A DNA stretch of 64,000 bases from a virus. Below, one piece after another: positions 24,318 through 60,290 of this stretch. The stretch covers positions 1,390 through 65,389 of the IMG/VR virus record IMGVR_UViG_3300029860_000005; one strand, written 5' to 3'. The notes under the pieces were generated by a model. The model did no database searches. It saw only the letters and a list, made by a program, of their open reading frames with translations, and was not told where the DNA came from. A program made the position numbers and the translations under genes. Within the stretch, counting starts at the first letter, position 1, and the number at the start of each line of letters is the position of its first letter.

Positions 24318-24323
24318 TTTAAA

Positions 24324-25709: not shown

Positions 25710-25735
25710 GAATAATTCTCCTTATTTATTTAATT

Positions 25736-25999: not shown

Positions 26000-26010
26000 T
26001 TAGTTTTTCC

Positions 26011-27276: not shown

Positions 27277-27281
27277 TTAAA

Positions 27282-27482: not shown

Positions 27483-27507
27483 TTCCTTTCTTAACCTTAT
27501 ATATATA

Positions 27508-27536
27508 TTATATATTATTTTTTATAAAAAATCAAT
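27508..27536 (-). promoter_or_regulatory. sigma70-type promoter TTGATT-17-TATAAT
   Basis: by eye. Confidence 0.5.
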
Positions 27537-27544
27537 AAAGATTT

Positions 27545-27823: not shown

Positions 27824-27834
27824 TATTTTTCTCC

Positions 27835-28554: not shown

Positions 28555-28588
28555 AAAATATCAATCCTTTCTTAATTTATATATATAT

Positions 28589-28617
28589 ATTATAATATAT
28601 TTTTATAAAAAAATCAA
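28589..28617 (-). promoter_or_regulatory. sigma70-type promoter TTGATT-17-TATAAT
   Basis: by eye. Confidence 0.5.
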
Positions 28618-28825
28618 GAGTGAGAAATTATCCCACTCTTGTAAGTTTCATAAATAGATTACAAATATTTAACCCTAAGCAACTTGCTAAAATCCAAATA
28701 TTCCAATATAACATTTTGTCAGTGTCTTTATACTTTTTAATAAAAGTGCATTGAATCCACTGGATAAGGCAGAAACACCAAATGGCAAAACAAGCCCAAA
28801 ACAAAGCTAAAAACAAATAATACAT

Positions 28826-29269
28826 TTAATTTCCCTCTTTTAATTCTTTTCTTACTCGCATTAAAATTTTTCCAAGTTTGTTATATGCCATAGTATCTTG
28901 GCATCGGACACAATGGCACACGCCCCATGTATTATCATGCCAAGTATTTCCTTCTTCAAGCCAAGCTTCTCCGGTTTTCTCAAGGGCAGTCCGCAAAGTT
29001 GGGTTTTGTGTAAATTTAGCTTTTACGCCTTTATACATAACATCTTCTTTAATGTCTTCCCAGTCTTTACGAATTACACAATGTCTTCCTAATCTCTTGG
29101 ATTTGCCAGGAGTAGGAGCCAATCTAATTTCTTCTGCATCCCCGGGGTTCGCTGCTTTCATTGCCTGAAAATAGTTTTCTACCGTGAGATATCTTTTTCC
29201 TTCTATTGTAATTGGAGAGTAAAAAAAGTTACTTAAAAAAGCAAAATCTCCTTCAAATTTATTAATCAT
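28826..29269 (-). CDS. NADAR (YbiA-like) domain protein
   Basis: 'FLSNFFYSPI...YLTVENYFQAMKA' NADAR signature. Confidence 0.55.
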   Translation of the reverse strand: MINKFEGDFAFLSNFFYSPITIEGKRYLTVENYFQAMKAANPGDAEEIRLAPTPGKSKRLGRHCVIRKDWEDIKEDVMYKGVKAKFTQNPTLRTALEKTGEAWLEEGNTWHDNTWGVCHCVRCQDTMAYNKLGKILMRVRKELKEGN

Positions 29270-29497
29270 TTAAATTTCCTCAAAGTTCTGAAGATCTAAT
29301 TCGGCTAAATCTTCAAAATCAAAATCTTCATTGTCATCAATATTGACACCATACATTTCGGCGCCTTCTTTAAGATACTGTCTTCGACCTTCCATGTACC
29401 ATGTCCAGTTATCAACGCCATCCCCTTCAAGAACATTAAGTTCATTTTCAGCTTTAAGAAGTTCAAGAAGTCTTTCTTTAGAAACAATATAATTCAT
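29270..29497 (-). CDS. small acidic protein
   Basis: 75 aa, consensus promoter upstream. Confidence 0.3.
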   Translation of the reverse strand: MNYIVSKERLLELLKAENELNVLEGDGVDNWTWYMEGRRQYLKEGAEMYGVNIDDNEDFDFEDLAELDLQNFEEI

Positions 29498-29526
29498 AAT
29501 AATATCACCTTTCTTTTTATATAAAT

Positions 29527-29555
29527 ATTATATAATAATTTTTTAAAAAAATCAA
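29527..29555 (-). promoter_or_regulatory. sigma70-type promoter TTGATT-17-TATAAT
   Basis: by eye. Confidence 0.5.
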
Positions 29556-29569
29556 AAAGGAGATAAGAA

Positions 29570-30106
29570 TTATTCCTTATCTCCTTTTTCTTGAATAAAA
29601 GTTTTAATTGGTTCGCTTACAAAACAACAAATATCGCACGCAACCTTTACTGATTCTTCTGGATCGTGTTTCAAGTATAGTGCGGTTGTTGCATAAGGAG
29701 CGCCTGCTCCAATGGCAAAATAGTCTTTGATCTCTCTTACCATAAACTTACAAATATGGAAAAGATGTCCTTTATAGGCGATAAGAAATTCATTTCTTAG
29801 AAATCCATCACCAATAAGAGTATTTTTCCATTTTGAAAATTCAATAATGTAATTAAGAATTTCTCGTTCATTAGCTTCAACTGGCTGATGATTTTCCATA
29901 TAAAGCCACATTAGACTTTGTTCATCACCATAACCAACTCCGCCAAGAATTATGTCGTTAATCTTAGCAATCTTAGCAAAATTAACATTAGGTTCCTTTT
30001 CATAGCCATTAGTAAGAATACTATCAGCACTCATTACAATTCTATCATCATAAACTTTAGCAGCGACAACGCTCATTTCAATCCTCCAACTGACAGATAT
30101 AAACAT
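29570..30106 (-). CDS. HslV/proteasome-beta-like Ntn hydrolase
   Basis: 'MSVVAAKVYDDRIVMSADSILTNG' resembles HslV '[23 protein letters not shown]'. Confidence 0.45.
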   Translation of the reverse strand: MFISVSWRIEMSVVAAKVYDDRIVMSADSILTNGYEKEPNVNFAKIAKINDIILGGVGYGDEQSLMWLYMENHQPVEANEREILNYIIEFSKWKNTLIGDGFLRNEFLIAYKGHLFHICKFMVREIKDYFAIGAGAPYATTALYLKHDPEESVKVACDICCFVSEPIKTFIQEKGDKE

Positions 30107-30560
30107 CTTCGTGATGGAGAATTTTTCTAATCATTAATTGAATAATATCCCAGTCTCCTCCACCAAGACCACACCCAATTTTATAAGGAAAAGCAATTGG
30201 AACATAGCCAGGAACTAATTTATTTAAATTTTCTAAACAGCTAGCAAATGCTTCATAATTAGTATATCTACATGGGCCATATCCATAATCATATTGAGCA
30301 AATAAACTTGCTACTCTATGACCATCTACGGTAGTAGTGCAAGCAACTGCACCAAGTAAAATGTCATCAGGTGGATTTTCTAATCCTGCGACTTGCGCTT
30401 CCGCGTTTTCAATAGTTTTTTTATAATCTACATAGACTTCAGGCCAACGAATACGGATTTGTTTGGCAAGGCCTGCGCCCATAACGCCTTAACAATTCAC
30501 TTGATGACAAATTACAATTTTAGGAGGTAAGTCTAATAGACTTTTATTTTTATAATAAGT
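30078..30560 (-). CDS. TARG1/OARD1-like macro domain protein, interrupted by an in-frame TAA (30489-30491) exactly at a conserved Gln position
   Basis: 'ITYYKNKSLL...IVICHQVNC-*-GVMGAGLAKQI...PYKIGCGLGGGDW'; track ORFs 30489..30677 and 30078..30482 are in the same frame. Confidence 0.45.
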
Positions 30561-30567
30561 AATCTGT

Positions 30568-39784: not shown

Positions 39785-40137
39785 TTATCAGAAGTTTTCC
39801 AGGTAAAAAAATCATAAATATCTTCGCTATTGTTGATTGGGTAATGTTTTATTTTTCCATTCTTGTCTTTAATTTCACAAATAGATGTTTCATTATTAAC
39901 TTTTTCCCAAATTAATTCATTAAAAGTATCAAATTCTTCATCAGTTTCAGGAAATCCGCGAGAAGAAATAATCATATCCCATACCATTGATACAGGATAA
40001 CAAAATACATCTTCATACCAAGCTCCAAAATCATCTTCAAGATTAAAAACTTGATTAAAGATATTAAAAAGTTTTTCTCTAATGCGAAAAATTTCAATTA
40101 AGCGATCAATATTACTAATAACAGTTTCTTTATCCAT
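39781..40137 (-). CDS. hypothetical protein
   Basis: 118 aa. Confidence 0.3.
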   Translation of the reverse strand: MDKETVISNIDRLIEIFRIREKLFNIFNQVFNLEDDFGAWYEDVFCYPVSMVWDMIISSRGFPETDEEFDTFNELIWEKVNNETSICEIKDKNGKIKHYPINNSEDIYDFFTWKTSDN

Positions 40138-40196
40138 TTTTATCTCCTAAAGAAAAAATGGGTTAGATATTTAATTAAATATCTAACCCATTAAAA

Positions 40197-41732
40197 TTAC
40201 TTAATACAAGCGTAGCGCTCGCTATTAAGCTTTTCCATCATAAGATCGTATCCAGTCTTTCCAGAAAGGATAGTCTCAAAAATGGTAGGACTCATGCCGG
40301 ATACAAAGGAAATACCATTCTTAACAGTCATAGGAATATTGTTCTGACGAGCATCAACATTCCAGAAGATAAGATTAGGCATCTTATATCCATAAGCGTT
40401 CCATTCCTTTTCAATCTTCTCCATCAGAGTATTACTGACAGTGCCATAACTACCACAACGAACGCAGGAATTAAATTCCATATCACTAATGATAATCAGG
40501 TTTTCGGGAATCTCATCCTGAGAGCAACCATTCTTAATGGCAGTCTTAAGCATAAGGTCAAAGGCAGATTCGATATTAGTAGAACCGCCCCAAGGAGCAG
40601 AACTAATACGCTTTACCTTATCGCAGAAATCAACACCTTCAACTTCCATGAAGTGAGGAGCAGACTCGAAAGTCATAAAATGATTTGCGAACGGGCCCTT
40701 AGCCTTATCTGCACAATACATACCAATAGAAATAGCTACATTGATAGGAGCAGAAGCTTCACTACCAGTCATAGAACCGGAAGTATCAACGAGAGCCATA
40801 CCATTAAAAGTTTTACCGGCAAAGTAATCAGCGAGATTCGCCCAATACTTATTAATCATAAGACGATCAGTATTGTCCATAGAGATAGCATGATCATAAC
40901 CATACCGACCATAACCGCCATAACCCATAAGGTTCATAGCCTTAGCAACACACTCATAAGGATAGAGAGCCTTGGCATTAACCGTGGTGGTTTCATCCTT
41001 GGCAAAATTCTCATAAGTGCGGGCGCCGGCCTTCTGACGCTCAATGTCATGACGCGCAAAAGCATTCTTATAGATAAGACCTGCGCGAGAAGGAATCTTA
41101 TCGAACTCAATCTTATCCCACTCGCCCGCAGACATCAAACGCTCAAGGACGTTAATGCGCTTACGAAGAATAGAGAGAGTCTTACGATACTGACGAGGAG
41201 TCATATTAAGATGCTTACGAGTCTTCATGCCGAGATACTGAGACTTCGCGGAACTGGTGTTCTCGCTCTTCAGCCACTTAGCCAAAAGAGAAGGAGTCTT
41301 ACACTGAACATCAAGAGCCAACTGCTCCTTAATGAGAGTATATGCTTCATCCTCAATGGCCGTACCATCAAAGACGTAAAGGTCGTCCCAACGACCAAAC
41401 TCAGGGACATTCTTCAAATTGCGAATAACGGCCTCAGATTCGTTATTTGCTAGCCACTTCATACAAATGCGGAAGAAGCGACGCTCACCTTGACCACCGC
41501 GCACATCGCGGATATAAAACAGACACTTCAAGGCATAAAGAGGATTCTCACGATATGCCTTCTGGAACATAAGAAGAACATCCTCATCACTACGCTTACG
41601 CATAGAAGCGCCGAGCGCGAACATGTCCAAAAGATCACTGGTCGTGGTCTTATGAGTAAGCGCGCCATTCTCCGTGAGAGTATAATTAGTCTCATTCTTC
41701 ATGCCATTCAAAAAAGTATTCATAGTCTTCAC
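40197..41732 (-). CDS. vWA-domain protein with TROVE/Ro60-like N-terminal region (DUF2828-like)
   Basis: MIDAS 'LVDTSGSMTGSE' (DxSxS); 511 aa; sits directly beside the tRNA and Y-like RNA array. Confidence 0.5.
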   Translation of the reverse strand: MKTMNTFLNGMKNETNYTLTENGALTHKTTTSDLLDMFALGASMRKRSDEDVLLMFQKAYRENPLYALKCLFYIRDVRGGQGERRFFRICMKWLANNESEAVIRNLKNVPEFGRWDDLYVFDGTAIEDEAYTLIKEQLALDVQCKTPSLLAKWLKSENTSSAKSQYLGMKTRKHLNMTPRQYRKTLSILRKRINVLERLMSAGEWDKIEFDKIPSRAGLIYKNAFARHDIERQKAGARTYENFAKDETTTVNAKALYPYECVAKAMNLMGYGGYGRYGYDHAISMDNTDRLMINKYWANLADYFAGKTFNGMALVDTSGSMTGSEASAPINVAISIGMYCADKAKGPFANHFMTFESAPHFMEVEGVDFCDKVKRISSAPWGGSTNIESAFDLMLKTAIKNGCSQDEIPENLIIISDMEFNSCVRCGSYGTVSNTLMEKIEKEWNAYGYKMPNLIFWNVDARQNNIPMTVKNGISFVSGMSPTIFETILSGKTGYDLMMEKLNSERYACIK

Positions 41733-41767
41733 CTAAATCTTTAACAAGATTCCTTTCTGAAAATTTA

Positions 41768-41844
41768 ATGGAGGCAAGGGTGAGATTCGAACTCACGAAT
41801 ACCGGCTTTGCAGACCGTCCTCTTAAACCACTTGAGTACCTTGC
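41768..41844 (-). tRNA. tRNA, probably Cys (GCA), atypical D-arm
   Basis: acceptor GGCAAGG/CCTTGCC, T-arm GTGAGTTCGAATCTCAC, CCA encoded; anticodon loop CUGCAAA. Confidence 0.45.
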
Positions 41845-41860
41845 CATATGAGTAAATTAA

Positions 41861-42172
41861 TTACTCATAAATATAAATTTCACCATCTTGAATGTTTAAT
41901 AATTCAATAGGAAGCGTATTACATCTTTTAATCCATTCGTCATGACCAATTACAGCAGATGCTCTATTAGGATAGCTTTCAACGATAATCCATTGATCAC
42001 TATCTATTTTAATACCAGTTTCATAACGTCCAGTATCATTAGTATAACAAGTATCAATAGTAATAAAATGTTTATTATTAATTAATTCTGTAGTATCTAC
42101 TACATCACCGCGAATATCAAAACCGGCAGAAAGAGTATCTAAAAAATTTAGAAAATCATTTGTATTCATCAT
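41861..42172 (-). CDS. hypothetical protein
   Basis: 103 aa between tRNAs. Confidence 0.3.
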   Translation of the reverse strand: MMNTNDFLNFLDTLSAGFDIRGDVVDTTELINNKHFITIDTCYTNDTGRYETGIKIDSDQWIIVESYPNRASAVIGHDEWIKRCNTLPIELLNIQDGEIYIYE

Positions 42173-45480: not shown

Positions 45481-45577
45481 AAAATTTTTAAAAGTAGTTT
45501 ATTGAAGAAATTGTTGAAATATTTTTATAATTGATTTTCTATGGCCTTTTGGACCAATTGTCCGCAATTATTAAATC

Positions 45578-45982
45578 CTATGTTTTATCATCATATCCAA
45601 TTATTGTAATTGTATGATTGGAATATTTTTCGCATTTCCAGAAAGATAAAATAACAGGTTTATTCATATCAATTAAATTTTTAATTGTAGTAAAATTATA
45701 TCCAAATTCTTTTAAATAATTTGAATGAGTTTGACATTTTTGTTTAGAAAAATATTCTAAAGATTTATTAAAAATATTTTTAATAAGTAGAGGATTGGTT
45801 CCTCGTTTATCATTATAACAATATTTTTTTCCAATAGATTCAACTATATTATAAATTTCTCTTTCAGAAGGATTCCTAAAACGAGTATAACAAATAGATG
45901 TTATACTCGTTAAAGAACAATTACGTTTATCTCCAAAATCTTTTTGATCTAAAAAGAAAAAAATTTTAATACGATGTTCCAT
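45578..45982 (-). CDS. possible papain-like/C39-like cysteine peptidase
   Basis: C-terminal 'NHTITIIGYDD' His-containing motif; weak. Confidence 0.3.
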   Translation of the reverse strand: MEHRIKIFFFLDQKDFGDKRNCSLTSITSICYTRFRNPSEREIYNIVESIGKKYCYNDKRGTNPLLIKNIFNKSLEYFSKQKCQTHSNYLKEFGYNFTTIKNLIDMNKPVILSFWKCEKYSNHTITIIGYDDKT

Positions 45983-45985
45983 AAA

Positions 45986-46690
45986 TTACTCGCCCCAACA
46001 AACAGGCATCGTAACCCAAGCGGAACCATTATAATATTTCAACCCAGAATTTGATGTAGTATCTACCCATAAAAGTTTTTTGTCTGTTGGAGCAGTTGTC
46101 CCAACATAAAAAATATTTTTTGGAAGACTATTTATTGTGGTATTAAGACTACTAATAGAAGATTTCGCACTACTAACATCAGATGAAAGAGAATTTACTG
46201 TAGTTTTAGTAGTCTTTAAATCGTTTGATAAAGTGCCTACGGATGTTTTAGTATCTTTAACATCAGTAGATAAAGTGCTTACAGTAGATTTTGTGGAGCT
46301 TAAATTAGAAGATAATGTGCTCACTTCAGAATTAGTTGAATTTAAATTATTTGATAAAGTGCTAATAGAAGATTTAGCATTGTTTATGTCAGTAGACAAT
46401 GTACTTACAGAATCCTTTGTAGAATCTAAATCAGATGAAAGAGATTCTACAGTAGATTTCGCGGCTGCACTTATATCATTTAATAATTCCGCGGGAGTGC
46501 GATAATAAATCTATCCATCATTGCCAATAATAGCAATATTACCAGTGCCATTAACCGCAGAAGTAAGTTTTAAATTAGAGCTTGTAATTTGACCGTTTGC
46601 TTCAATTGTAGTATTACCGACTGAAACGTCATTAGCATTTTTTTCAGCAGTAGAAACAAATTGATCAAAAATTCTTGGTTTAGCCATAAA
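45986..46690 (-). CDS. tail fibre protein with ~11-aa Ser/Thr repeats, one in-frame TAG (~46511)
   Basis: repeats 'SxVSTLSxxLxxTK'; C-terminus 'LLWVDTTSNSGLKYYNGSAW'. Confidence 0.45.
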
Positions 46691-46711
46691 TATTTTCTCC
46701 TTTCTTGAATA

Positions 46712-47569
46712 TTAAATCCAAGCCACGGGGACAGGGGTCCAAGTACCTGTGGTAGAAGTTCTATATTTAAAAGTGCCAGTAGAACTGGTAGTATCGATCC
46801 AGAGTAATGGGGTAGTTCCAGACGCGGGTTGCGTAGATCCAATATAGATAGCATAATCAGTAGTAGTTCCAATTACTGGAGTTTTATCTATTATAGACCA
46901 AGACCCATCTGCGCGCAAGTATTTAGTAGTGCTACCATCTGATTTTGGAACAACACCATTTTTAGTGGTTGAAAATAATCCAATATCATCAGCATTAACA
47001 TTAACTGAGGCTGCTCCTTCAATACCCATTACAGTAAGATAATCACCTTTTTTAGCAGTCCAATCTACTAAAGTAAGAGTGTTATTACTAATAGTGTAGT
47101 TATCATTTTCTTTCATCATTACACCATTATAATAGGCAGTTAATGTGCCAGAATCATTATTAAAATCAAAAGGAATAGTAAATGTTGATTGTGTGGCATC
47201 TGTTACAGTAAAAGTATATTTATTAGTAATTGAGTGATAATCAACACCCTCGGTTGCCGCTGTAATAGTAGTACCATCACTTTTTAAAATACCAGTTGGA
47301 AGAGAAACAAGAGTAGCTTCAATAGGAGTTTCCCATGTCTCACCGTCTGTATTTTTTACTAAAGCATCACCAGCGGTTCCACCATCAGGAAGACAAGAAC
47401 TAAAATCTAAATCATTAACTTTAGTTATTCCATCACCAATTTTTATTTTATTTAAATCATCATAGATGATAATTTCACCTTTTAAAGGAATAAAATTAGT
47501 CGCTTTTGCCCAATTCGCGGAACTATCATGCTTTTGGACTATGCGACCTTGATATGTTTTATTAGCCAT
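46712..47569 (-). CDS. tail fibre protein
   Basis: C-terminus 'LLWIDTTSSTGTFKYRTSTTGTW' paralogous to the upstream fibre. Confidence 0.45.
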   Translation of the reverse strand: MANKTYQGRIVQKHDSSANWAKATNFIPLKGEIIIYDDLNKIKIGDGITKVNDLDFSSCLPDGGTAGDALVKNTDGETWETPIEATLVSLPTGILKSDGTTITAATEGVDYHSITNKYTFTVTDATQSTFTIPFDFNNDSGTLTAYYNGVMMKENDNYTISNNTLTLVDWTAKKGDYLTVMGIEGAASVNVNADDIGLFSTTKNGVVPKSDGSTTKYLRADGSWSIIDKTPVIGTTTDYAIYIGSTQPASGTTPLLWIDTTSSTGTFKYRTSTTGTWTPVPVAWI

Positions 47570-47594
47570 ATTATTTTCCTTTCTTTAAAAATTT

Positions 47595-49140
47595 TTATTG
47601 TTTAACTGCATTTGCTTGAAGCCAGGTCAGTAGGTCACCGGTTGGAGGGTCCAAAAATGTGACAGTGCGGTAGGCAGAATTGATCCAATTTGCATTTCCC
47701 GCTACATGGTCTGCATCTGGACTGCTAACAAAAATTTCATTTACTGTTGTATTATTGTACTTGATATAAGTTGAACCCATAGGGGGCAATCCGAATTGTT
47801 ATTGAAGTAAAATTCTCCCCATTTGAAATAAAATTCAACGAAGAAGCAGTAAAATTAGCAAGAGAAGAATAATTATCATTAATAATTCATATTTCTTTTG
47901 GAACAATAGGTGGGTCAGGAGCAACTTTCGCGCGCACTAAAGAATTATTTATTTTTATAATATCATTTTTAGAATCCTACTTTGTTCTTATTAAATTACC
48001 ATTTTCTGCTATATTATTACTATCAGTAGAAATTAAACTATTATTAGCAAGAACAATATTTTTATTTTGTAATAATATTTTCATTAATTGTCTCCTTTCT
48101 TTTAAGAGATTATTTTAGATTGATAAATTATTTTATTTTATATTATAAATATTTATTGAGATGGCATAATATATCCAGCAATATTTAATGTATAATATGT
48201 ATTTGACCAATAATAACTTGAATTGCCAATCGTCATATAAAATTTTGAAGAATTTTGGTCAAAAAAGTGTGAAAAATTAATATTATTATTATTATATCCA
48301 TCAAACTAAAATACATCACCATTTACAGCATAATATCCGTCTAAAAAAGCATAAATCCCTCCATCAGAAGGGACGTAATATCCATTTGGCTTAATTGAAA
48401 TAGATTGTATCTAAAAATTAGGTGGCATAGCTATACCATCCCAATATATTGTCTGCGTATTGCCAAAAAGTGTATTTCCAGCGCGAGCAATACAATAAAA
48501 AAAATCCTATCGAGTTCCAGTTACTCCAAAAATATTTACTCCACTTTTAATATTACTTGCAGTTAAATTACTACTTCCACTTACTCTTATAGCTCCAGTT
48601 GTATATTTTCCGCTATCAACTACGGTTTGATTATATCTTCCAGGAGTTTTGGTAATTGTAATGTTTTATTTGTTCCACTTGATAAATAACCACTAGTTCC
48701 TACACTTGAAGTAATTAAACCATTACTATTAATTGTAGGATTATTAAGCACACCAGTTGGCATAGCATTAACAGTTACTTTAGATAATCCATCATAATCA
48801 TTATCAGGCATTATAATTTGAGAAGAGGTTGATGGTGTAATAATTTTATCTTGTAGTTTAGGATTTCCACCACCGCCACTTATTACTTCTATACTCACAT
48901 TAAACCTCCTTTATAGACAAAAAAATGGTGTTACCTCTTTTGTATAATTAGAAGTAACACCATTTAAAAAATAGTTTTCTCAATAATCATTTCCAAAAGA
49001 GTAAAACCAAAATATATATTTATAAATTTTAAGTTATCAATTTCAAACTTAAATTTTTATCTACATTATATATTAATTTTTGGAAATAATAATATATTGA
49101 ATTCGACCAAAAAGAAAAAGGCTCTCAATTAAGAGAGCCT
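47595..49140 (-). other. block of TAG-interrupted structural (tail fibre-like) coding sequence; includes track ORFs 47595..47789 and 48620..48898
   Basis: continuous minus-strand coding bias with many plus-strand CTA triplets and no long standard ORFs. Confidence 0.3.
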
Positions 49141-49144
49141 TTAA

Positions 49145-49525
49145 TTAAATATTTACCGTAGAAGTTCCGCAATCAAAAATGATATAATTAGTTTGCGCGA
49201 GCGCCTCAATAGAGGGTGTACCCCACGTTCCATCGCCTTTAAGAAAATTGTCCTTATTGGCGACCGCAGGCGCCGGCACTAAACCTTTTGCTCCATTGCT
49301 AGAACTGGTTGCGCCAACCATTACATCAATATTATTTTGAACGACGGTCCAATCTGCGATTTTAAAAGCGGAATTATAATCACCAACACATACAATCATA
49401 TCTCCTGGCTCAATTTTTCCAAGAGAGCTAAGAGTGAATGTGGCATTGGATTTATAAGTCCAACCTGTTTTATAATTAGTTAAATTTGTGATATCGGTAG
49501 CATTTGAAACCACACCTTTAAACAC
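49145..49525 (-). CDS. Ig-like structural protein
   Basis: 126 aa, beta-rich composition. Confidence 0.3.
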   Translation of the reverse strand: MFKGVVSNATDITNLTNYKTGWTYKSNATFTLSSLGKIEPGDMIVCVGDYNSAFKIADWTVVQNNIDVMVGATSSSNGAKGLVPAPAVANKDNFLKGDGTWGTPSIEALAQTNYIIFDCGTSTVNI

Positions 49526-49678
49526 AAGAGAAGAAGCAAGAGTCGTCTCAAGCTAAGTGAGACGATTTCTTGCGTCAGAGTCTTTCAGGTGGTAAATGAC
49601 GCTACCTAAGTTGATTTTGGAAATCAATTTCATATTATCTGCCATTTACTCACCACCTTATATTAAAATTTAACTAAA

Positions 49679-51148
49679 TTAAGCCTTAGTGATGGGACTG
49701 ACTTCAATTTCAACAGTCTTAGCAGTCTTAGTGATAACATCAGTCTCAGGAGTGATAGCAACGCTAAATGCAGCAGTAGCATCGGCCTTATCATAGCTAA
49801 CGCCAGTAATAAGAGCGTCTTTAACTTCAGTACCAGCAAAGTTAAGAGTAGCAGCAGTACCAGTAAAGGTAGCAGCATCAATTACAGGTTTAACATAAGT
49901 AACATTAGTAACTTTCATATCTTCAACTTCAGTACCGGTAAAGGTGCTATTAATAGCATATTTATTACCAGTAAAGGTAGGTTGAGATACTTCAACACTG
50001 GCGCCAGTCATAAGAGCGTCAGAAGCACCAAAGGTAGGTAAAGCACCAGACAAAACAGGAGCAGTATAACTAACATCACCAGAAGCAGTAACAGCATTAG
50101 AGGTGCCTGCCAGAGTAAAGATTAAGGTCTCAGCATCATCACCAGAGCCAACAGTAGCAACAATACCTTCAGTAGCAAAGGCGCTTTTAACATCAGTAGC
50201 TTTTTTAACAGAGCCTTTAGTAATACTATAAGCAGTACCAGCATTCTTCATTTCTTGAACTGTGGCAGTTGTAGGAGTAACAGTAGCAGTGGGTTTAGAA
50301 ATAGTACCAGCAATAGCAATACCATTATCGGCATCAGCAACAAAACTAGAAGTTACGGAACCTGCGGGTTTATAAGCTTCAGCAGTAATAGAAGCAGCAG
50401 TAGCAGCTTCAGCATCTTTAAGAGTAACGTTAATAGAACCACCAGAAATAGCAGAACCAGTAATCTTACCAGCAGGAGTGTAATTAGCCTTGGTAAGAGT
50501 GGCATCGGCGGCCTTAGAAGTAACAGCAGCATCACCAGCGACAGTGACAGGTTTCATGGTGATGCTATCAACGGTCTCAATTGACCCGGAACCAGAAGCC
50601 TTATCAGCATAGGCCATTGCGCCAAGAGTAAGAGCTTTCTGAAGTTCAGAGACAGAAATATCCTTGTTAAGTCGAATACCAGCAATGGTAATAGTATTAG
50701 AAATATAACCACTAAGGTCAGTCTTGGTGGAACCAATTTTTTCCCAAGCATAGGTATAAGCACCCTCAGCGCCAGAACGAATAGTAATCCACTCAATATA
50801 AGTACCAGCAGAAGCCTGAGCATCAGCAACCATGTAAATCTTATACATAGTGTCTTTAGAAGCTGCTACAGAAGGACCAGTAGCTCCACCATCAGTATCA
50901 ATTACAACATCAAAACTATGAATTTGTCCGACTTGAGAATCAACATAACTCTTAACGACAGAAGCATCAACAAGGCCTTCACCAGAAATTTCAGTGGCAA
51001 CTGCCTTCCAAGCGGCAGCACCAAGAGATTCAAGAGCATGTTTACCAAGAAGAGTAGTTAGATCCGCACGGCCATCCGCATCTTTTACATAAACTGTAGT
51101 GCCATTGGCGAGTTTAATTTTAGAAATATAAGTCTTAGTATCAGGCAT
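49679..51148 (-). CDS. Ala/Thr-rich structural protein (Ig/BIG-like repeats)
   Basis: 489 aa; GC-richer codon usage. Confidence 0.4.
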   Translation of the reverse strand: MPDTKTYISKIKLANGTTVYVKDADGRADLTTLLGKHALESLGAAAWKAVATEISGEGLVDASVVKSYVDSQVGQIHSFDVVIDTDGGATGPSVAASKDTMYKIYMVADAQASAGTYIEWITIRSGAEGAYTYAWEKIGSTKTDLSGYISNTITIAGIRLNKDISVSELQKALTLGAMAYADKASGSGSIETVDSITMKPVTVAGDAAVTSKAADATLTKANYTPAGKITGSAISGGSINVTLKDAEAATAASITAEAYKPAGSVTSSFVADADNGIAIAGTISKPTATVTPTTATVQEMKNAGTAYSITKGSVKKATDVKSAFATEGIVATVGSGDDAETLIFTLAGTSNAVTASGDVSYTAPVLSGALPTFGASDALMTGASVEVSQPTFTGNKYAINSTFTGTEVEDMKVTNVTYVKPVIDAATFTGTAATLNFAGTEVKDALITGVSYDKADATAAFSVAITPETDVITKTAKTVEIEVSPITKA

Positions 51149-51729
51149 AATATATATATCTCCTTTATTTTATTTATTTCTTAATCCCAAGGAAGATCAA
51201 GAGTTAGACATTCTTTATCTTCGTCGTCTAATACGAATTTAATAGAATTTACACCATCTGTAATAGCTTTTTGAGTCATTGTTCCATCTATATTACTTCC
51301 TGAAGTCTCATAAAGTTTCATAATACCAGCAATATTTTCTGTTGCCTCTGGAGTTAAACAATAATAACTATCCCCATCGGAAATATAGACAGAAGATTTC
51401 GCGTTTTTATCAATATAAATGTGTTTTTGACTTTTTTCTAATTCAGTTGTGTAAGTGCTATCGGTATAAAATTTATTATTAAGATAATAACCTGTAAGAA
51501 TTATATTATTGTTATTATCAGAATAAACTAATTGATTATAAGAATTAATTCCATCACCAATCTTAATTCTTAGACCATAATTTATTGTATCAACTAAACA
51601 AACCTCTCCACGAGCGGGAATGAATTTATTTCCAACTTTTTCATAATTATAGTCATTATCGCGACGTAATTTAATAATAGAATTAATCTATTTTATATTA
51701 GGCATTAATTAGCCTCCTTTCTACCTTTT

Positions 51730-52101
51730 TTAGGCAGTAGGAGCACTACCACCATCAATAATTAAACCATCGAGTATATCAGTTAAATCATTTTCATTAG
51801 GAACTTGACTAAATTGGTTGTTATTAATAACATTGTAACTAATCCAGTTGCCATTTTTATCTTTAATTGAAATGGTTTCACCTTCATAATTACCATATTT
51901 AGCAACCCAAAGACGTGCTTCATTTTCATTTTCAAAACGAGTCTTTTTAACAATTTGTTTTAAATTGCCTTTTTCATCATAATAATAAACTTCTCCGCTA
52001 TTTTTCTCGTTATTTGTTACAATAAGAGTTTCATTAGAGATAACCTCTTCAGCGATGCTATTATTAATTTTATCTTTATTCAGATATGCTAATTTAAACA
52101 T
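51730..52101 (-). CDS. hypothetical structural protein
   Basis: 123 aa. Confidence 0.3.
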   Translation of the reverse strand: MFKLAYLNKDKINNSIAEEVISNETLIVTNNEKNSGEVYYYDEKGNLKQIVKKTRFENENEARLWVAKYGNYEGETISIKDKNGNWISYNVINNNQFSQVPNENDLTDILDGLIIDGGSAPTA

Positions 52102-52241
52102 CAGTCAATCCTCCTTCCTTAGATTTTCGTGGTTACTACATAATAGCCATCAATGTAGTCTTGCTCGTAACCATCGGCAATCATTGCTTCTGGAAGTTGA
52201 TGACTGAATCTACCACCAGAAATAATAAATTCAGCATTGCC

Positions 52242-53609
52242 CTAAATTGTAAATAATTCTTTGCCAGTACTTTCAAAAGTACCACCTGTAATTATAGTTT
52301 TACCAATATTAAGAGTATCATTGTTTTTAACACCTTGAACAGTAGCCTTACCATCATTTGTTGAGAAATAACCACCATTAATAGTAACAATTTTACCAAC
52401 ATTATAAATTGGGCCGTAGAATTTACCATCATTAATAGTTAAAACACCATTATCATCATTTTTAATAGTAACATAAGCGTTAATAAAAGTACCACCATTA
52501 ATAGTTAATTCAGGAGACTCAGCATTTTCACCATTAATATGTTCTTTACTATAATCATAATAACCATTATCAACTAAGCTGGATAATCCGCCAGGAGAGG
52601 AGAAGACACCGTCACTAATAGTCATATAACCATGATTTTTTAAAACATATCCTCCATTACCTTTTTCATCAATAGAACGAGAATAGGTTCCATTTTTAAT
52701 TGTAACGTTACCATTGTTTTCAACAACAGCTCTACCATTTTTATTACATTCTACGTTACCATTACCAGTTAAAGTAAGGTCACCAGTATTTTTAATTACA
52801 ACAGGGCAAGTGTCATTATTAACAATAACAGCATTATTCATATCAACAGTAAATCTTTTATTCGTGGAAATTGATTCATCTGCCTCAAGGCCACTATTTA
52901 ATTTAATAGTTCCGCCATCTTCAACAGCATCAATAGCTTCATTTACACCAATAAAAGTTTGTCCATTGACTTCAACTGAAGTGTCATCTACGGTTTCACC
53001 ATATACTTTAATAACATCTAAATCAGTTTTTAAAGCATACTTGTCAAGTTCAACTTTCTCAACATAATTTTTTGCGATTTCTGTCTTAACATCTTCTACT
53101 TTTTGGCCGACTTCAGTAACTTTATTATCTATATCAGAAATTTTTTGATTAATTTCGCTAATAGAAGAATCAATTCCATCAAATTTTTTATTTAAGTCAG
53201 TAGTTAAATCTTTGATACTAACTTTAATAAGATTATCTGTTTCTTCTTTATTATAATAATTGCTAAGATCAACTGCATGAAAAATTTCCCAATTGTCGCC
53301 GTCCCAAATATAGAGACTACGTTCCGCGGTTACTTGATAAATATCACCTGTTTCCGCGGATTCTGGTAAATTACTTTTTTCTGCGACTGTACCAATAAAA
53401 TGAATAGCCCCTTCATTAACACCAACGTATTTGAGTTCGCCCCAAGTAGAAGTGCCATCACCAATTTTTACTTGGCCTTTATTTTTTCCGTCGAGAGTTA
53501 CGCATGGTTCGCCCGCTTTTGGAATATAAGTATTAGCAACTGCATCCCATTGAGCTTGATATCCACGACGGAATTGAATAAGGGTCTGTAAAGTTTTCTT
53601 ATTTGCCAT
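52242..53609 (-). CDS. right-handed beta-helix tailspike/pectate-lyase-like protein
   Basis: repetitive 'NxxIxNxGxxT' coils, e.g. 'VIVNNDTCPVVIKNTGDLTLTGNGNVECNKNG'. Confidence 0.45.
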   Translation of the reverse strand: MANKKTLQTLIQFRRGYQAQWDAVANTYIPKAGEPCVTLDGKNKGQVKIGDGTSTWGELKYVGVNEGAIHFIGTVAEKSNLPESAETGDIYQVTAERSLYIWDGDNWEIFHAVDLSNYYNKEETDNLIKVSIKDLTTDLNKKFDGIDSSISEINQKISDIDNKVTEVGQKVEDVKTEIAKNYVEKVELDKYALKTDLDVIKVYGETVDDTSVEVNGQTFIGVNEAIDAVEDGGTIKLNSGLEADESISTNKRFTVDMNNAVIVNNDTCPVVIKNTGDLTLTGNGNVECNKNGRAVVENNGNVTIKNGTYSRSIDEKGNGGYVLKNHGYMTISDGVFSSPGGLSSLVDNGYYDYSKEHINGENAESPELTINGGTFINAYVTIKNDDNGVLTINDGKFYGPIYNVGKIVTINGGYFSTNDGKATVQGVKNNDTLNIGKTIITGGTFESTGKELFTI

Positions 53610-53632
53610 TTACAAATTTCCTCCTTATTTAT

Positions 53633-53851
53633 TTATACTGGAACTTCTCCGCCATCAATAACCTCATATGTATTATCATCATTAATGTAAGGAAGATCAT
53701 TCCAAGCATGAACACCATCGCCAACTTTTAATTTGCCAGTGTCTAATTCAAAACCCGGTTCTCCCGGACCTAAAAGAATATTTTTTTTAGCCCAAGTTTC
53801 TGCGTTTCCACGTTTAAAGTAAAACTTTGACTTCATATAAACATCAGCCAA
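53633..53851 (-). CDS. small structural protein
   Basis: 72 aa. Confidence 0.3.
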   Translation of the reverse strand: MADVYMKSKFYFKRGNAETWAKKNILLGPGEPGFELDTGKLKVGDGVHAWNDLPYINDDNTYEVIDGGEVPV

Positions 53852-53865
53852 TTAAATACACCTCC

Positions 53866-54138
53866 TTAATCAATACTACCGCCATCCCAAATATATGTAT
53901 TATCAGGATTAGAAGGTTCAGAGCTCCCGCCACTACCACTATTATTACTATTGGATTTTTGTTCAACCCAAGTATTATTATCTTGATAAATATATAATTT
54001 TGATGATTTAGGAATAAAAGCAGTACTGCCAGGGAGCAATGAAATTGTTGGAATTTTTTCAATATCTTCAACAGAATCAACTATGAATTTTTTTAATCCA
54101 TAATTAACTTTACCATTTTGATGTGTTAAAGTATACAT
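53866..54138 (-). CDS. small structural protein
   Basis: 90 aa. Confidence 0.3.
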   Translation of the reverse strand: MYTLTHQNGKVNYGLKKFIVDSVEDIEKIPTISLLPGSTAFIPKSSKLYIYQDNNTWVEQKSNSNNSGSGGSSEPSNPDNTYIWDGGSID

Positions 54139-54239
54139 CTTATTGCCTCCTCTTTTATTACATCATTCTAAATAATATAAAAAAATATTCTTTATGAATA
54201 TAAAAAATTGGCCTACTGAAATTCTCAGTAGGCCAATTA

Positions 54240-56273
54240 ATTTTAATAATTATTATATGCAGTTAATAAAGTATCTAATTGTGCTTTAAAACTCGCATCA
54301 CCTGATGTTACTTTAGTATTATTCCCTAATGCGGTTGCGACTGCGTTAAACCAAATGACCAATCGTAATGGATTTGCATTATTGATAGTAATAATTGAAC
54401 TATTTAAATAAGTATTTATATATTCTGCAAAAGTATTTGCTTCACTTCTGGAATAATTTTTCCAAGTAAATGCAGGCCACCAGACTGCATAATAAGTTAT
54501 ATTAGATGTTTCGGCAACAATTGAAGGCGTTGTTCCCTTTTTATAAGTCGCGGTTTTTGCTGAAGATGATGTAGACCATCCTTTAAAAATATAATTAGAC
54601 TTTGTTGGAAAATTAGATCCATTTATATTAAAAGAAGAATTAGCATTAACGGTCTATGATCCAGGTCCACCAGAACCGCCATTTGCATTATAAGTCACAG
54701 TAATTGTATTTATTTTCCAAATGGCATAAAAAGTTGTTGAACCACTTACTGATACTGCACTTCCTGCATTATATCCAGAAGTTGCTGATGAAGAAGTGCT
54801 CCATCCTTGGAAAGTATAACCAGTACGAGTAGGCGCGGAAGCCATTGTAGCAGTCATAGAATCAGCATAAACATAATTTGTAGACCAAACAGTATTAGTA
54901 CCATCATTTTTATTAAAAGTTATTGTATATTGTCTATAATATTTATACTACCATGGTATAGAATATGTATTGCTAGCGCTCCAAGCAGCATTTACATACC
55001 AATAGTAAGTAGTGTTTGCTGATGCCACTTGTTCAATTTTAGTATCGTATCCAGTTCCTGCTCCATCATCGTCTGTTTTCAATGTTGTTCCACTAACAGC
55101 ACTTCTTCTATCAGTTCCTGAACCTGCTGATAAAAGTGAAGAACTTAAATAACTACAATAATCAGGAGTATTAGAATTACTAGTTGTTTTAAAAACTAAT
55201 TTTCCAGCATAACCTGGTGTTGTTACTGTAATATATCCTGCTTTATAAGCAGGTACAGAAGTAGTACTGCTTATTCCACCAATACCGCTGCCTATAGTGT
55301 ATATATTAATTGGGGCCATCCAAGAGCTTATTGATTCAAAATAAAAATAAAGTTGTCCTGAAAAAGCAGCAGGACTACTCCAAGGAGCCACCGTTATTCT
55401 ATAAGTTGTATTAGCTGTTACAGAAAATTGAGTTATTTTAAAATGATTATTTCCTCCACTCTAATCATCAGAGGTTAAATAATTTGTTATTGCCTAATAT
55501 CCATTAGAAGCGCTTGAATTTAGTCCTATTGAACTAGCATATCCTATAGTTCCATAATCATCAAAACTACTTCCAGAGGCATAAATTGTAAAGAATCCAT
55601 TTGAGCTGGGGGTATAATCAATATATCCAATTCCATAAGAAGATAAATTATAATCTGCATAAGTATTAACAGCTCCACTATAATTACCTAAATTTTGTAA
55701 ATACCATCCGGTTGGAGCTTCTGTATAAAAGAAAACTATATAAGGATATGTTGAACTGTGATCGGTACAAACGGAATCTGTTCCATCATAATTTCCATTT
55801 TCTGCCTACTCTACGCATTTTGACCAAGTGCTATGATAAACATAACCCTAATAAGTATACCCACTAATAGTAGGAGCTGTAATGCTTGAAGAAGAAGTGG
55901 AAGTTTCATAGCCCATATAACCTCCAGCGGTTAAATTATAGCAATCCCAATAATAATCCTCATCAGAGCCACCGCTACCTCCTCCGCCTCCACCAGATTC
56001 TTCATCAGTCCAAGCAACTCCTGTTCCAGATGCTCCATTATACCACTGGCCTGCTGTATAATAATCTACTTCCCAAGCATATTCATACCTTGTGTCAGGG
56101 GTTAATCCTGAAATTAGAACCCAAGGAGCTCCAGTTGTTGAAGGACCAGTATCCGAAGTTCCATCATCTAAGCAGACATATAACCTTCTACTAACCTGAT
56201 CTGAGCTTAATCCACTTGCTTCAAAAATTAATGAAGTAGTAGTACTACTTGTGCAACTTACAGAAACAGCCAT
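54240..56273 (-). other. large TAG-interrupted tail fibre/receptor-binding gene (includes track ORFs 54654..54857, 54948..55391, 55848..56273)
   Basis: Ser/Thr/Gly-rich beta-type composition, frame broken mainly by TAG. Confidence 0.35.
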
Positions 56274-56791: not shown

Positions 56792-56881
56792 TGGTCGGAG
56801 ATGAGGGAATCGAACCCACTCGAGCGACTAAGCGCACCGGTTTTACAGACCGGGGTGTCTACCTTATCACGTTAATCTCCG
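56792..56881 (-). tRNA. tRNA-Tyr (GUA), class II
   Basis: CGGAGAT acceptor; anticodon arm CCGGT CTGTAAA ACCGG; long variable arm; CCA encoded. Confidence 0.6.
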
Positions 56882-57221
56882 AAATATATTTCCTATAATC
56901 TTTAATAAATCGCCAGTAATCTTCTCGATTATAAGGAATGTTATTATATTTATTAAAATCATGCGCGAAAGCACAATAAATTAGAAAATCTAAATGTTTA
57001 GATTTTAATTGGACATGCCACTCATAAGAACCATCAAGTCTAGCTCCATAAGCACGATGAAATAAAGTATATTCTCCAAACCGCACTTTATCCGCAAGTA
57101 TAATTTTAAAATCATCTCGATTATTATGAATATTTAAAACGTCATAACCAAGACCATTTTTGGTAAACTTATGAGAACCACCAAAAGTTTCTTCACAATA
57201 ATTTAAATAAATATCAAACAT
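56859..57221 (-). CDS. hypothetical protein
   Basis: 120 aa. Confidence 0.3.
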   Translation of the reverse strand: MFDIYLNYCEETFGGSHKFTKNGLGYDVLNIHNNRDDFKIILADKVRFGEYTLFHRAYGARLDGSYEWHVQLKSKHLDFLIYCAFAHDFNKYNNIPYNREDYWRFIKDYRKYISEINVIR

Positions 57222-57456
57222 TTTTTTATTTGAGGGTTTTAATTAGGTTAACCCATAACCTCCGATAGTGTGTCTACTGGACCAAGGAAATACCCGATCG
57301 CCGCATTTCGCTCTTTAAAAGATGGACGCTTCTAATCCTACTTCCTATCGTATAAAAGGACTTATCAATGACTGTTATACATATTGCCTTTATTATCTTT
57401 ATAAACAAATTAGCATTACCCAGTGCTACCGCGAGGAGGTTTTGTTTTTAGCACCG

Positions 57457-57528
57457 CGGAGGGGGTGGGTGTCGATCCCACTTATCTGGTTTTAGAGACC
57501 AGCGCATTTGCCGCTATGCTACCCCTCA
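57457..57528 (-). tRNA. amber suppressor tRNA, anticodon CUA (reads UAG), with tRNA-Gln-like identity elements U1, G10, U35, G73
   Basis: Hand fold: TGAGGGG TA GCAT AGCGGCAA ATGC G CTGGT CTCTAAA ACCAG ATAA GTGGG ATCGACA CCCAC CCCCTCC G. All stems Watson-Crick except 1:72; anticodon 'tag' on plus 57493-57495. Confidence 0.65.
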
Positions 57529-58587: not shown

Positions 58588-58612
58588 AAAAGTTATTTCA
58601 AACTAGACACGT

Positions 58613-58727
58613 TAGAAAACATAATTTCAAGTTATGTGCGTTAACCAATTTCGCCAAAACCCCAATTGGAGTTTACAGGATTTGAACCCGTATACCTTTC
58701 TAATGAAAGAATTGCTGTATGTGTCTT
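58613..58727 (-). ncRNA. Y-RNA-like/permuted tRNA-like element. Leader GACACATACAGCAA..., T-arm ACGGGTTCAAATCCTGT, AAACTCC A, then 5' half GGGGTTT TG GCG..CGC A CATAA CTTGAAA TTATG. Trailer GTGTCT pairs with leader AGACAC.
   Basis: acceptor strands complementary (AAACTCC/GGGGTTT with one G.U). Confidence 0.4.
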
Positions 58728-59427: not shown

Positions 59428-60290
59428 TTAAGTAGTTAAAAACGCATTATAACCTTTTGATTTTAAATCGTTAATTACTTTTATAGCATTTGCTTTGACA
59501 GAAAAAGCACCGACTTGAACTTTATAATACTTACCAATCTTACGAATATAAGCATTTTTATAACCTGCTCCAATAGTATCAGGTAATGCTTTAATTTTCA
59601 ATAAGAAAGCGTCAGCATTAGATTTAGATCCAAAAGCACCAAGTTGAACACGATAAATAATTTGCGGTTTAAGGTAAATAGCCATTACATTATCAACTGC
59701 ACGATTGCCCCAATCTTTAGTGATACAAGTTCCATTATGAAGAACTTTTGTGCTACCACCGCCATCAAGGTTAATAGCATAATCAACTTTTAATGCTAAA
59801 AGTAAATTCTACATTTCTGTAAATGCCATACCTGGCTTTTCAATAGCGATTAAATAAATATTAAATTTATTATATGCCAATACTGTTCTACGAGCTTTAT
59901 AATTTAACTCTTTAGCATAAGTAATTTGAGTTTTTTTGCCAGCCTTAATTAATACTGGATAACCGCTAACAAAATCTTCAAACTTTTCTGTTCCAATTAT
60001 ACCGTATTTCAATTCACCATTAATGATACCAAAACCTTCTTTATAAGAAGAAGTGGAATTAATGATTATACCATTGTCCATATAATTAAAACAAGTGCCA
60101 CCATTATCCATACTAAAGAAACCACCATTAGTTAAAATAGTAGGTTTAACCGCACAACTATCATAGTATTGCTTTAAGGTCTAACGCGGTTGAGCACATA
60201 ATGCCATATCCAACTTACTAATTTCTTCTTTTGGAATTTCAATAATTTTTACATATGAATAATTGCTTGGAGAATATATCTTCATCAAAT
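59428..60290 (-). CDS. cell-wall-binding enzyme: NAGPA/phosphodiester-glycosidase-like domain (DGGGST) + C-terminal SPOR repeats, with in-frame TAGs
   Basis: track ORFs 59428..59685 (SPOR 'YRVQLGAF...') and 59809..60111 joined by TAG read-through; upstream 'NLDGGGSTKV'. Confidence 0.4.

Follow-up and report, generated by a model that had tools for sequence, protein, structure and literature searches.

In a 64,000-nucleotide (nt) stretch of viral DNA (positions 1,390 to 65,389 of the IMG/VR record IMGVR_UViG_3300029860_000005; hereafter the window, with positions counted from its first letter), a 72-nt segment of the minus strand resembles a tRNA with the anticodon CUA. This raises the question of whether the segment encodes a genuine amber suppressor tRNA and, if so, which amino acid it inserts at UAG, which genes depend on it and how its 3' end is formed. 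We argue that it is very probably the code-switch tRNA of a ~190-kb gut phage recoded at TAG ('genetic code 15'), matured by a theta ribozyme and charged with glutamine. The locus would thus be a compact example of a phage rewriting an infected cell's genetic code by means of a suppressor tRNA, a cis-acting ribozyme and a set of lysis and virion genes loaded with TAG.

The suppressor tRNA and its codon

Two independent programs and a base-by-base assignment of tRNA positions agree on the tRNA. ARAGORN folds 57456-57528 as a minus-strand tRNA with a CTA anticodon, and the 'tRNA-Pyl' that it prints reflects this anticodon alone, the label being given to any CTA anticodon; the Rfam tRNA model (RF00005) covers 57457-57528 on the minus strand end to end and scores 52.3 bits, the gathering score being 29 (E = 2.3e-8 over the window). 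The acceptor stem comprises U1·C72, G2-C71, A3-U70, G4-C69, G5-C68, G6-C67 and G7-C66, and leads via U8 and A9 into a perfect D stem of 4 base pairs (bp; G10-C25 to U13-A22) with an 8-nt D loop that contains GG (AGCGGCAA). G26 is followed by a fully paired anticodon stem of 5 bp, which closes the 7-nt loop CUCUAAA (C32 U33 C34 U35 A36 A37 A38; position 33 is U and position 37 a purine). The variable loop has 4 nt, the T stem consists of 5 bp without a mismatch, and the discriminator G73 lies at 57457. A first-pass annotation made from the letters alone had described this 72-nt cloverleaf, its three perfect stems, its loop and anticodon, and the presence of U1, G10, U35 and G73, and in all of this it was right; what it took for a weak 1:72 pair is a U1·C72 mismatch in both the Rfam alignment and our position parse. 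Features that it did not record are the 4-nt variable loop, the AUCGACA T loop, the absence of an encoded CCA and the theta ribozyme on the 3' side. The T loop (57468-57474, minus strand) has A54 and A60 in place of the usual T54 and pyrimidine 60.

The IMG/VR relatives, which are ~99% identical here, and 11 gut contigs from one metagenome scan provide seven distinct variants of the 126-nt unit formed by the tRNA and the ribozyme, a small sample of closely related sequences. Eight columns of the unit vary: four of them belong to two compensatory changes in the tRNA (U28-A42<->C28-G42 and G49-C65<->A49-U65), and the other four are unpaired, namely tRNA positions 26 and 54, the last base of L3 and one base of L4 of the ribozyme. 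Position 54 is A or C in these variants and never U. Every pair cell is still paired (266/266), while U1·C72, G73, the adjoining C74 and every ribozyme helix are invariant. The tRNA structure has positive covariation support, and the element, being invariant or compensated throughout the seven gut-metagenome variants, is no chance match. An unconstrained minimum free energy (MFE) fold of the unit recovers the cloverleaf together with P1 and P3 of the ribozyme; the MFE z-score of the unit (-0.2) gives no stability signal. A near-identity search with 19 kb against 50,697 deposited phage records returned a 57-nt tRNA-Thr as its sole match, and the lineage thus appears to be absent from the deposited phage genomes.

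When TAA and TGA are taken as the only stops, many long frames appear that are broken by TAG alone, nearly all the coding being on the minus strand, and the restored proteins have clear Pfam domains that span the TAG positions (the endolysin and the DnaB, DHH, GIY-YIG and NAGPA+SPOR proteins; Table 1). The position of these TAGs inside Pfam domains bears out the earlier statement that this is phage DNA with genuine in-frame TAGs, and their occurrence in conserved genes is indirect support for the view that the suppressor reads UAG. Orthologues of the endolysin have CAA at several of its TAG sites, and in a fibre-like protein an 'I.GG.F' repeat runs on unbroken past its TAG. Over the chosen open reading frames (ORFs) TAG accounts for 51 of the 473 Gln-type codons (11%), with an uneven spread that reaches 38% in a Cys-rich protein; stops in 73 chosen ORFs are TAA in 60 cases and TGA in 13. 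The TAG count is zero in gyrB, the DNA ligase, PhoH+PIN, radical SAM and AAA_24 genes and throughout the block between 24 and 42 kb. The called gyrA ORF (11587-14010) likewise has no TAG inside, and the one TAG counted for it (14016) sits in an extension upstream of the start codon. The same pattern, with lysis and structural genes most recoded and replication genes variable, is known from recoded gut phages. Annotation of the genome requires translation table 15, as otherwise the endolysin, helicase and fibre genes look broken. The gain in ORF length under alternative stop sets was not discriminating, since reading TGA as sense lengthens ORFs too.

To assign an amino acid to TAG, the ORFs of the window were compared at the DNA level with orthologous ORFs in 35 related loci, drawn from 15 IMG/VR contigs (47-197 kb), ENA and Logan gut assemblies and 11 metagenome contigs (67-97% amino acid identity), each combination of site and codon being counted once. 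Among 72 distinct exchanges between TAG and a sense codon the partner is a Gln codon in 33 (46%; CAA 25, CAG 8), followed by Lys (9), Ser (7), Asp (4) and others with at most 3. The events were scored with the substitution spectrum observed for each amino acid in these alignments, and the resulting log-likelihoods (Gln -157, Trp -231, Lys -237) place Gln 73 units above the next candidate. In an initial round of the census the share of Gln among TAG partners was 0.47, as compared with a synonymous share of 0.50 for true Gln codons. As CAA is two mutations away from TAG, this excess of Gln does not stem from mutational proximity and reflects selection. The comparative evidence that TAG is read as Gln is therefore strong, and Gln is by far the best fit. 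Homologue residues at the TAG sites proved unusable for this purpose: the Q found at all eight endolysin sites in the closest homologues was put there by the gene caller, because the contigs do not translate to these proteins under the standard code.

The tRNA's 3' end

ARAGORN finds 17 tRNA genes in the window, 16 of which encode their CCA end; the suppressor alone lacks it and instead has a single C followed by a ribozyme, so that its maturation would need cleavage, removal of a cyclic phosphate and completion of the CCA. The 53 nt that follow this C correspond to the theta ribozymes, self-cleaving RNAs resembling that of hepatitis delta virus (HDV) that lack P4 and have their cut site a few bases (+/-5 nt) from the 3' ends of phage tRNAs (Kienbeck et al. 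2024, PMC10879173). Read from 57455 to 57403, the segments are GGUGCU (P1 5'), AA (J1/2), AAACAAA (P2 5'), ACC (P3 5'), U, CC and UCGC (together L3, which contains the CC of P1.1), GGU (P3 3'), AGCACU (P1 3'), GG (P1.1), GUAAUG (L4), CUAA (J4/2) and UUUGUUU (P2 3'), and comparison with published members indicates that all 13 fit the theta layout. P1 has 6 bp and closes in the G1·U wobble typical of HDV, P2 is a perfect 7-bp helix, P3 is formed by ACC and GGU, and the GG of P1.1 pairs with the CC of L3. The P3/L3 13-mer (ACC-U-CC-UCGC-GGU) is identical to that of HDV itself, and the run GG-GUAAUG-CUAA is identical to that of theta-0092, which is active in vitro and linked to a suppressor. The predicted catalytic cytosine is the first base of J4/2, a position at which C->U inactivates theta ribozymes in vitro, as shown for four other members (PMC10879173). 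By the G1 rule of the family the cut is predicted between C57456 and G57455, leaving one C after G73; an alternative 7-bp register of P1 from C57456, with the cut right after G73, is less likely, given that every published member starts with G.

The published survey of theta ribozymes provides a closely matching context. Suppressors make up 20% of the partner tRNAs and 99.7% of these have the anticodon CUA, and only 4.5% of the partners encode CCA. In phages that contain theta ribozymes, one of these comes directly after 85% of the suppressor tRNAs, and code 15 is used by 96.4% of such genomes (PMC10879173). Published members include some whose 6-bp P1 ends in G1·U and some that combine a 6-bp P1 with L4 GUAAUG and J4/2 CUAA, the commonest P1 being 7 bp; in the portion of the supplementary tables available to us, the exact tRNA and ribozyme sequence of the window was not found. 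In a strict layout scan of the window and ~110 other loci this ribozyme family alone matches, ~80 of those loci holding the core 13-mer by chance and none of them the rest of the layout. A relaxed descriptor scan of the window gave no other convincing copy, the other matches lacking the canonical core and occurring at the shuffle rate of ~2 per window, and a scan of viral contigs for other suppressors with a CUCUAAA loop and a theta core behind the tRNA gave 84 matches of which only this family is real. A covariance model built from the published theta sequences was dropped, as the MAFFT alignment lost register between the 6-bp and 7-bp classes of P1.

From these observations we infer the following route. 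The tRNA array would give rise to a long minus-strand transcript that includes the suppressor, whose 5' end would be produced by the RNase P of the host. The 3' end would be generated in cis by the theta ribozyme, which, to judge from the motif, cuts 5' of G1 (57455), so that the tRNA would end in G73-C74 and carry a 2',3'-cyclic phosphate. This end would then be healed and completed to CCA by the CCA-adding enzyme of the host, by candidate phosphoesterase and nucleotidyltransferase proteins of the phage, or by both. Charging with Gln would most simply be performed by the host glutaminyl-tRNA synthetase (GlnRS) on the basis of U35, G73, G10, G2-C71 and the open 1:72 position. The charged suppressor would read UAG in competition with release factor 1 (RF1), allowing translation of the TAG-containing genes, above all the endolysin, but also other cell-wall enzymes and fibre-like virion proteins, whereas most replication and RNA-repair genes would need no suppression. 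The first-pass annotation had concluded that the phage enforces decoding of TAG as Gln by itself. The phage does bring its own CUA tRNA, and the codon census favours Gln, but the phrase is overstated because the phage depends on host factors for charging, for processing of the 5' end and for adding CCA, as well as in the competition with RF1. Among the annotated proteins of the window there is no release factor or synthetase gene.

The candidate RNA end-healing genes span 31144-35017 on the minus strand and comprise genes for a DRB0094-like RNA ligase, a metallophosphoesterase and an RlaP-like nucleotidyltransferase (Table 1). Sequence searches of the PDB with the three candidates returned nothing usable. 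The DRB0094-type ligase is enriched 140-fold in theta-bearing phages (PMC10879173), and on this basis the candidate proteins might be proposed to heal the end of the suppressor. A speculative and on balance unlikely extension of this idea is that maturation of the suppressor is a gated step that times the code switch, such that the lysis and fibre genes, rich in TAG, could be translated only once the healing enzymes of the phage have built up. Under such a scheme 16 tRNAs would come with a ready-made CCA while the suppressor alone would have to be cut, healed and extended before charging, and the adjacent TAG-free block (RNA ligase, metallophosphoesterases, RlaP-like protein) could supply the healing and extension. 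A timing role of suppressor maturation was left open by the authors of the theta ribozyme study (PMC10879173), and the presence of 16 tRNAs with CCA next to one ribozyme-tailed suppressor makes this lineage suitable for testing whether maturation times late genes and lysis.

Identity elements, ancestry and rival explanations

The picture of a Gln-charged suppressor trimmed by its own ribozyme has to be weighed against a number of observations that speak against it, and these are given here beside the rival explanations. The identity set of bacterial GlnRS consists of G73, U1-A72, G2-C71, G3-C70, G10, U/C34, U35, G36, A37 and U38 (PMC9976931 Table 1), and the suppressor agrees with it at 7 of 11 positions (G73, U1, G2-C71, G10, C34, U35 and A37). 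It departs from it at 72 (C for A), at 3-70 (A-U for G-C), at 38 (A for U) and, by necessity, at 36 (A for G). The identity set for Trp is matched at 7 of 10 positions, including G73, G4-C69, G5-C68 and A9, so that the two sets fit about equally. The elements that had been put forward as GlnRS determinants are thus present, but they do not discriminate; the deciding identity position is U35. GlnRS opens the 1:72 pair, and a mismatch there should favour this enzyme; a 1:72 mismatch weakens the binding of EF-Tu in the E. coli initiator tRNA, and U1·C72 is unusual in an elongator tRNA. The indirect route to Gln-tRNA would be awkward if the host is without GlnRS, as a modified U34 is needed by the non-discriminating glutamyl-tRNA synthetase (ND-GluRS), and GatCAB depends on U1-A72 (PMC9976931).

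The ancestry of the tRNA gives the strongest footing to a different explanation, in which the suppressor arose from tRNA-Trp(CCA) by C35->U and either still inserts Trp, as in a code-32-like system, or has switched to Gln like E. coli Su7. Positions 24-45 are ~95% identical to many phage tRNA-Trp genes, and the exact anticodon arm (CUGGU-CUNNNAA-ACCAG) carries no Gln anticodon in 120 sampled loci of bacterial genomes, where the anticodons are CCA (Trp) in 45, UGA (Ser) in 33, UCA (selenocysteine, SeC) in 11 and GCA (Cys) in 7; in addition, 19% of 180 theta-linked suppressors were typed as Trp by tRNAscan-SE (PMC10879173). The body of the tRNA points the other way. Among 317 parsed bacterial tRNAs, U1 is found in 8 of 9 tRNA-Gln and in none of 47 tRNA-Trp (A1 in 44 of them), and a 4-nt variable loop in 5 of 9 and 4 of 47, respectively, with the reservation that the panel of 9 tRNA-Gln is small; the combination of U1, G73 and a 4-nt variable loop thus appears to favour the Gln type. 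Furthermore, a bacterial tRNA-Gln(CUG) with the loop CUCUGAA, one change from CUCUAAA, exists, and the suppressor of the gut phage phAss-1 was typed as a Gln isotype by tRNAscan-SE (PMC10607447). On this evidence an origin from tRNA-Gln seems probable. The earlier proposal of a tRNA-Gln(CUG) with G36 changed to A accordingly names the likelier source, even though the anticodon arm is of a Trp, Ser, SeC or Cys type and occurs in no sampled tRNA-Gln. Pairwise identity to 345 bacterial tRNAs outside the anticodon arm, a crude measure, let no isotype stand out, and E. coli genomes hold no similar tRNA. In E. coli, GlnRS charges the CCA->CUA mutant of tRNA-Trp (Yaniv et al. 1974, cited in PMC2965240), and because of this ancestry matters little for function. 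Insertion of Trp is hard to reconcile with the census, in which TGG is the partner in 3 of the 72 events as against 33 for Gln codons, and the explanation from tRNA-Trp is on the whole unlikely.

The two other alternatives concern the ribozyme and the status of the tRNA itself. If the sequence after the tRNA were merely HDV-like and did not cleave, the 3' end would be left to RNases of the host, either RNase Z or exonucleases, as it is in other tRNAs that lack CCA. In keeping with this, the match of 57401-57455 to the Rfam model RF02682 (HDV-F-prausnitzii) is below threshold (26.1 vs 44 bits), P1 and P2 show no variation in the seven variants and hence no covariation within the lineage, and P1 is shorter than the commonest published form in a sequence that is not among the published entries available to us. 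The P4 region of the RF02682 model is missing from the element, which is not to be filed under that family; it would act in a like manner, but by its layout belongs to the P4-less theta subgroup. Against a non-cleaving sequence stand the agreement of all 13 segments with the layout, including G1·U, the GG/CC of P1.1, CUAA and the 7-bp P2, the existence of published members with a 6-bp P1, a core identical to that of an in-vitro-active member, and the failure of the ~80 chance 13-mer loci to show the rest. Moreover, variation of the ribozyme in the seven variants is confined to L3 and L4 with no helix-disrupting change, covariation of the helices is visible family-wide in the published theta list, and the element lies one base away from a tRNA end, in the context that defines the family. 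A non-cleaving sequence is therefore decidedly unlikely. It is more unlikely still, to the point of being hardly credible, that the tRNA is a tRNA-Pyl or has some role apart from general decoding of TAG as Gln, for instance as a decoy or as a pseudogene, with the TAGs in frame being pseudogenising or programmed stops. Apart from the ARAGORN label, this would be favoured by a 120-aa ORF (56859-57221, minus strand) that seems to need TAG as its stop. The TAG in question may be a genuine terminator in a genome that otherwise uses TAG for Gln. In tRNA-Pyl the anticodon stem is 6 bp and the variable loop 3 nt long, and the D loop is very small and lacks G18G19. Here, by contrast, the anticodon stem has 5 bp, the variable loop 4 nt and the D loop 8 nt including GG, in a near-canonical cloverleaf, and no PylS-like protein is among the annotated window proteins. 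A pseudogene or stops are contradicted by tRNA stems that evolve by compensatory change and by TAGs that are exchanged with CAA and CAG and are found within the conserved domains of genes which the relatives have kept intact.

Related systems and genomic surroundings

TAG-recoded gut phages with CUA suppressors are known from crAss-like, Lak, Agate and other clades (Borges et al., bioRxiv 10.1101/2021.08.26.457843), and their recoding was validated by metaproteomics (PMC9523058). The window phage resembles them in its low GC content, the concentration of TAG in lysis and virion genes, variably recoded replication genes, a CUA tRNA, TAG as a Gln codon and TAA as the main stop; it differs in belonging to another lineage, for which the sense reading of TAG is deduced from sequence comparison. 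The ribozyme shares with those of Kienbeck et al. the 13-segment layout, the sequences of P3, L3, P1.1, L4 and J4/2 of published or active members, a predicted cut within 1 nt of the end of a CCA-less phage tRNA, a CUA suppressor as its partner, a code-15 genome and a candidate gene for a DRB0094-like ligase. It differs in its 6-bp P1, in the one C, equivalent to C74, that would be retained before the cut, and in being attached to only 1 of the 17 tRNAs of the window. As code-15 gut phages, their CUA suppressors and tRNA-linked theta ribozymes have all been published, the window is a further example and no new system; what it adds is the 16-to-1 contrast in CCA and the conserved U1·C72 mismatch.

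The closest full-length relative of the suppressor among deposited phages is tRNA-Sup-CTA of phAss-1 (OQ749652; PMC10607447), with 76% identity. The two have U1·C72, G73, the 4-nt variable loop and CUCUAAA in common, and both come from gut phages with TAG->Gln, although the genomes are unrelated at the DNA level. The phAss-1 suppressor differs in its encoded CCA, its canonical T loop (UUCGAUU), the lack of a ribozyme and the next tRNA following 6 nt later. That U1·C72 has been kept in two otherwise diverged suppressors suggests that it is functional, and it may point to a design rule for Gln-accepting amber suppressors. A second CUA suppressor of phAss-1 (OQ749652, 6079-6166) is 88 nt long and contains, after its anticodon arm, a long insertion; the supplement of the theta study tables near-identical sequences as 'Gln CTG pseudo', the anticodon apparently having been assigned inside the insertion. 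In E. coli, supE (tRNA-Gln CUG->CUA) and Su7 (tRNA-Trp CCA->CUA) likewise owe to a single anticodon change their ability to read UAG and insert Gln, with U35 and G73 driving recognition by GlnRS. These are, however, mutants of the host chromosome with partial suppression, whereas the suppressor of the window is a phage gene serving systematic recoding, and it departs from both in its 1:72 mismatch and A3-U70 and in lacking U38. As regards the host, a tblastn search with GyrA found ~40% identity to assorted records and indicated no host.

Table 1. Positions of the suppressor, its ribozyme and other features of the window
Feature	Position	Strand	In-frame TAGs (share of Gln-type codons)	Basis or remark
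Amber suppressor tRNA, anticodon CUA, 72 nt	57457-57528	-		ARAGORN, Rfam, position parse, compensatory changes
Anticodon C34 U35 A36 (plus strand TAG)	57493-57495	-		ARAGORN, Rfam, position parse
Single C between G73 and ribozyme G1, at the C74 position of the CCA end	57456	-		homology with phAss-1 G73-CCA
Theta-type minimal HDV-like self-cleaving ribozyme (predicted), 53 nt	57403-57455	-		layout match, weak Rfam match
Predicted catalytic cytosine, first base of J4/2 (CUAA)	57413	-		position in published layout
tRNA array	41769-63703	-		ARAGORN; all 17 tRNA genes of the window
Endolysin (Phage_lysozyme2 + Amidase_2)	17907-19208	-	8 (32%)	
Repeat-rich fibre-like protein, 676 aa	54243-56273	-	6 (40%)	no family match
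NAGPA + SPOR cell-wall-binding hydrolase-like protein	59428-60285	-	2 (25%)	
GIY-YIG domain protein	8691-9704	-	4 (21%)	
DnaB-like helicase	3003-4535	-	2 (11%)	
DHH (RecJ-like) protein	1-1045	-	present	cut by window edge
DRB0094-like RNA ligase (candidate)	31144-32526	-	none	Pfam/NCBIfam at or below curated cut-offs
Metallophosphoesterase (candidate)	33235-34017	-	none	Pfam/NCBIfam at or below curated cut-offs
RlaP-like nucleotidyltransferase (candidate)	34211-35017	-	none	Pfam/NCBIfam at or below curated cut-offs

The candidate end-healing genes lie within a minus-strand block (24000-42000) that codes for Band-7/SPFH and NADAR proteins, three metallophosphoesterases, the RNA ligase, the RlaP-like protein, an 832-aa MVP(vault)-like protein and a DUF2828/DUF7788 protein. 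The GC content of this block is 0.39-0.41 as against ~0.30, CAG is used over CAA (28 CAG and 0 CAA in the MVP-like gene), TGA stops are commoner, and in-frame TAGs are all but absent. The block resembles an RNA-repair or vault-like module gained by horizontal transfer. A 239-aa protein (22990-23709, minus strand) with 3 in-frame TAGs, to which no family was assigned, has an N-terminal region of 150 residues that consists almost entirely of Cys/Gly/Ser/Thr/Asp repeats of the C-x3-C type.

The other 16 tRNAs of the array are those for Cys, Lys, Gly, Leu (two), Ser (three), Thr, Tyr, Val, Pro, Ile, Arg, His and Phe, interspersed with small ORFs and a block of tail-fibre-like genes. Most of the 17 are directly preceded by ...TAT or ...TTT, and the small ORFs between them have strong AAGGAG ribosome-binding sites, which suggests long polycistronic transcripts that are processed. 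A scan for promoters and terminators gave nothing above chance. A 41-aa ORF ends 9 nt before the suppressor, with a GTG start here and ATG in relatives. The tRNA-Tyr(GUA) gene (56795-56881, minus strand) scores 35.6 bits with the general tRNA model and 42 bits with the tRNA-Sec model (below the threshold of the latter), and has C1-G72 and a long variable arm; the TAG at the end of the 120-aa ORF (56861-56859) falls in its 5' part and is kept in relatives, and readthrough would carry this ORF on through the tRNA. Between tRNA-Pro and tRNA-Val lies a degenerate tRNA-like element (58588-58663, minus strand; 24.5 bits with RF00005, below threshold, and without an ARAGORN call) with a UGA anticodon and an irregular T-arm region.

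A RAGATH-33 RNA (RF03102; 43440-43568, minus strand; 122.7 bits vs a gathering score of 120.4) starts 16 nt after tRNA-Leu(UAA)-CCA; elsewhere, Leu(UAA) is the commonest partner of theta ribozymes. Between tRNA-Phe and tRNA-Ser(GCU) there is a sub-threshold match to twister-P1 (63223-63273, minus strand; 41.2 vs 67.2 bits, E = 4.5e-6 over 23 kb), in which the conserved core bases are present and one stem is deleted, and the tRNA array may thus hold a second kind of self-cleaving RNA. Finally, several ORFs at 45488-56273 (minus strand), between two tRNA clusters, have unrelated C-termini but share at the N-terminus a conserved motif, exemplified by 'LIQFRRGYQAQW...GE' and 'IIKLRRDNDYNY...GE', that is typical for the N-termini of Mtd_N/tail-fibre proteins, which points to a cassette of alternative receptor-binding proteins.

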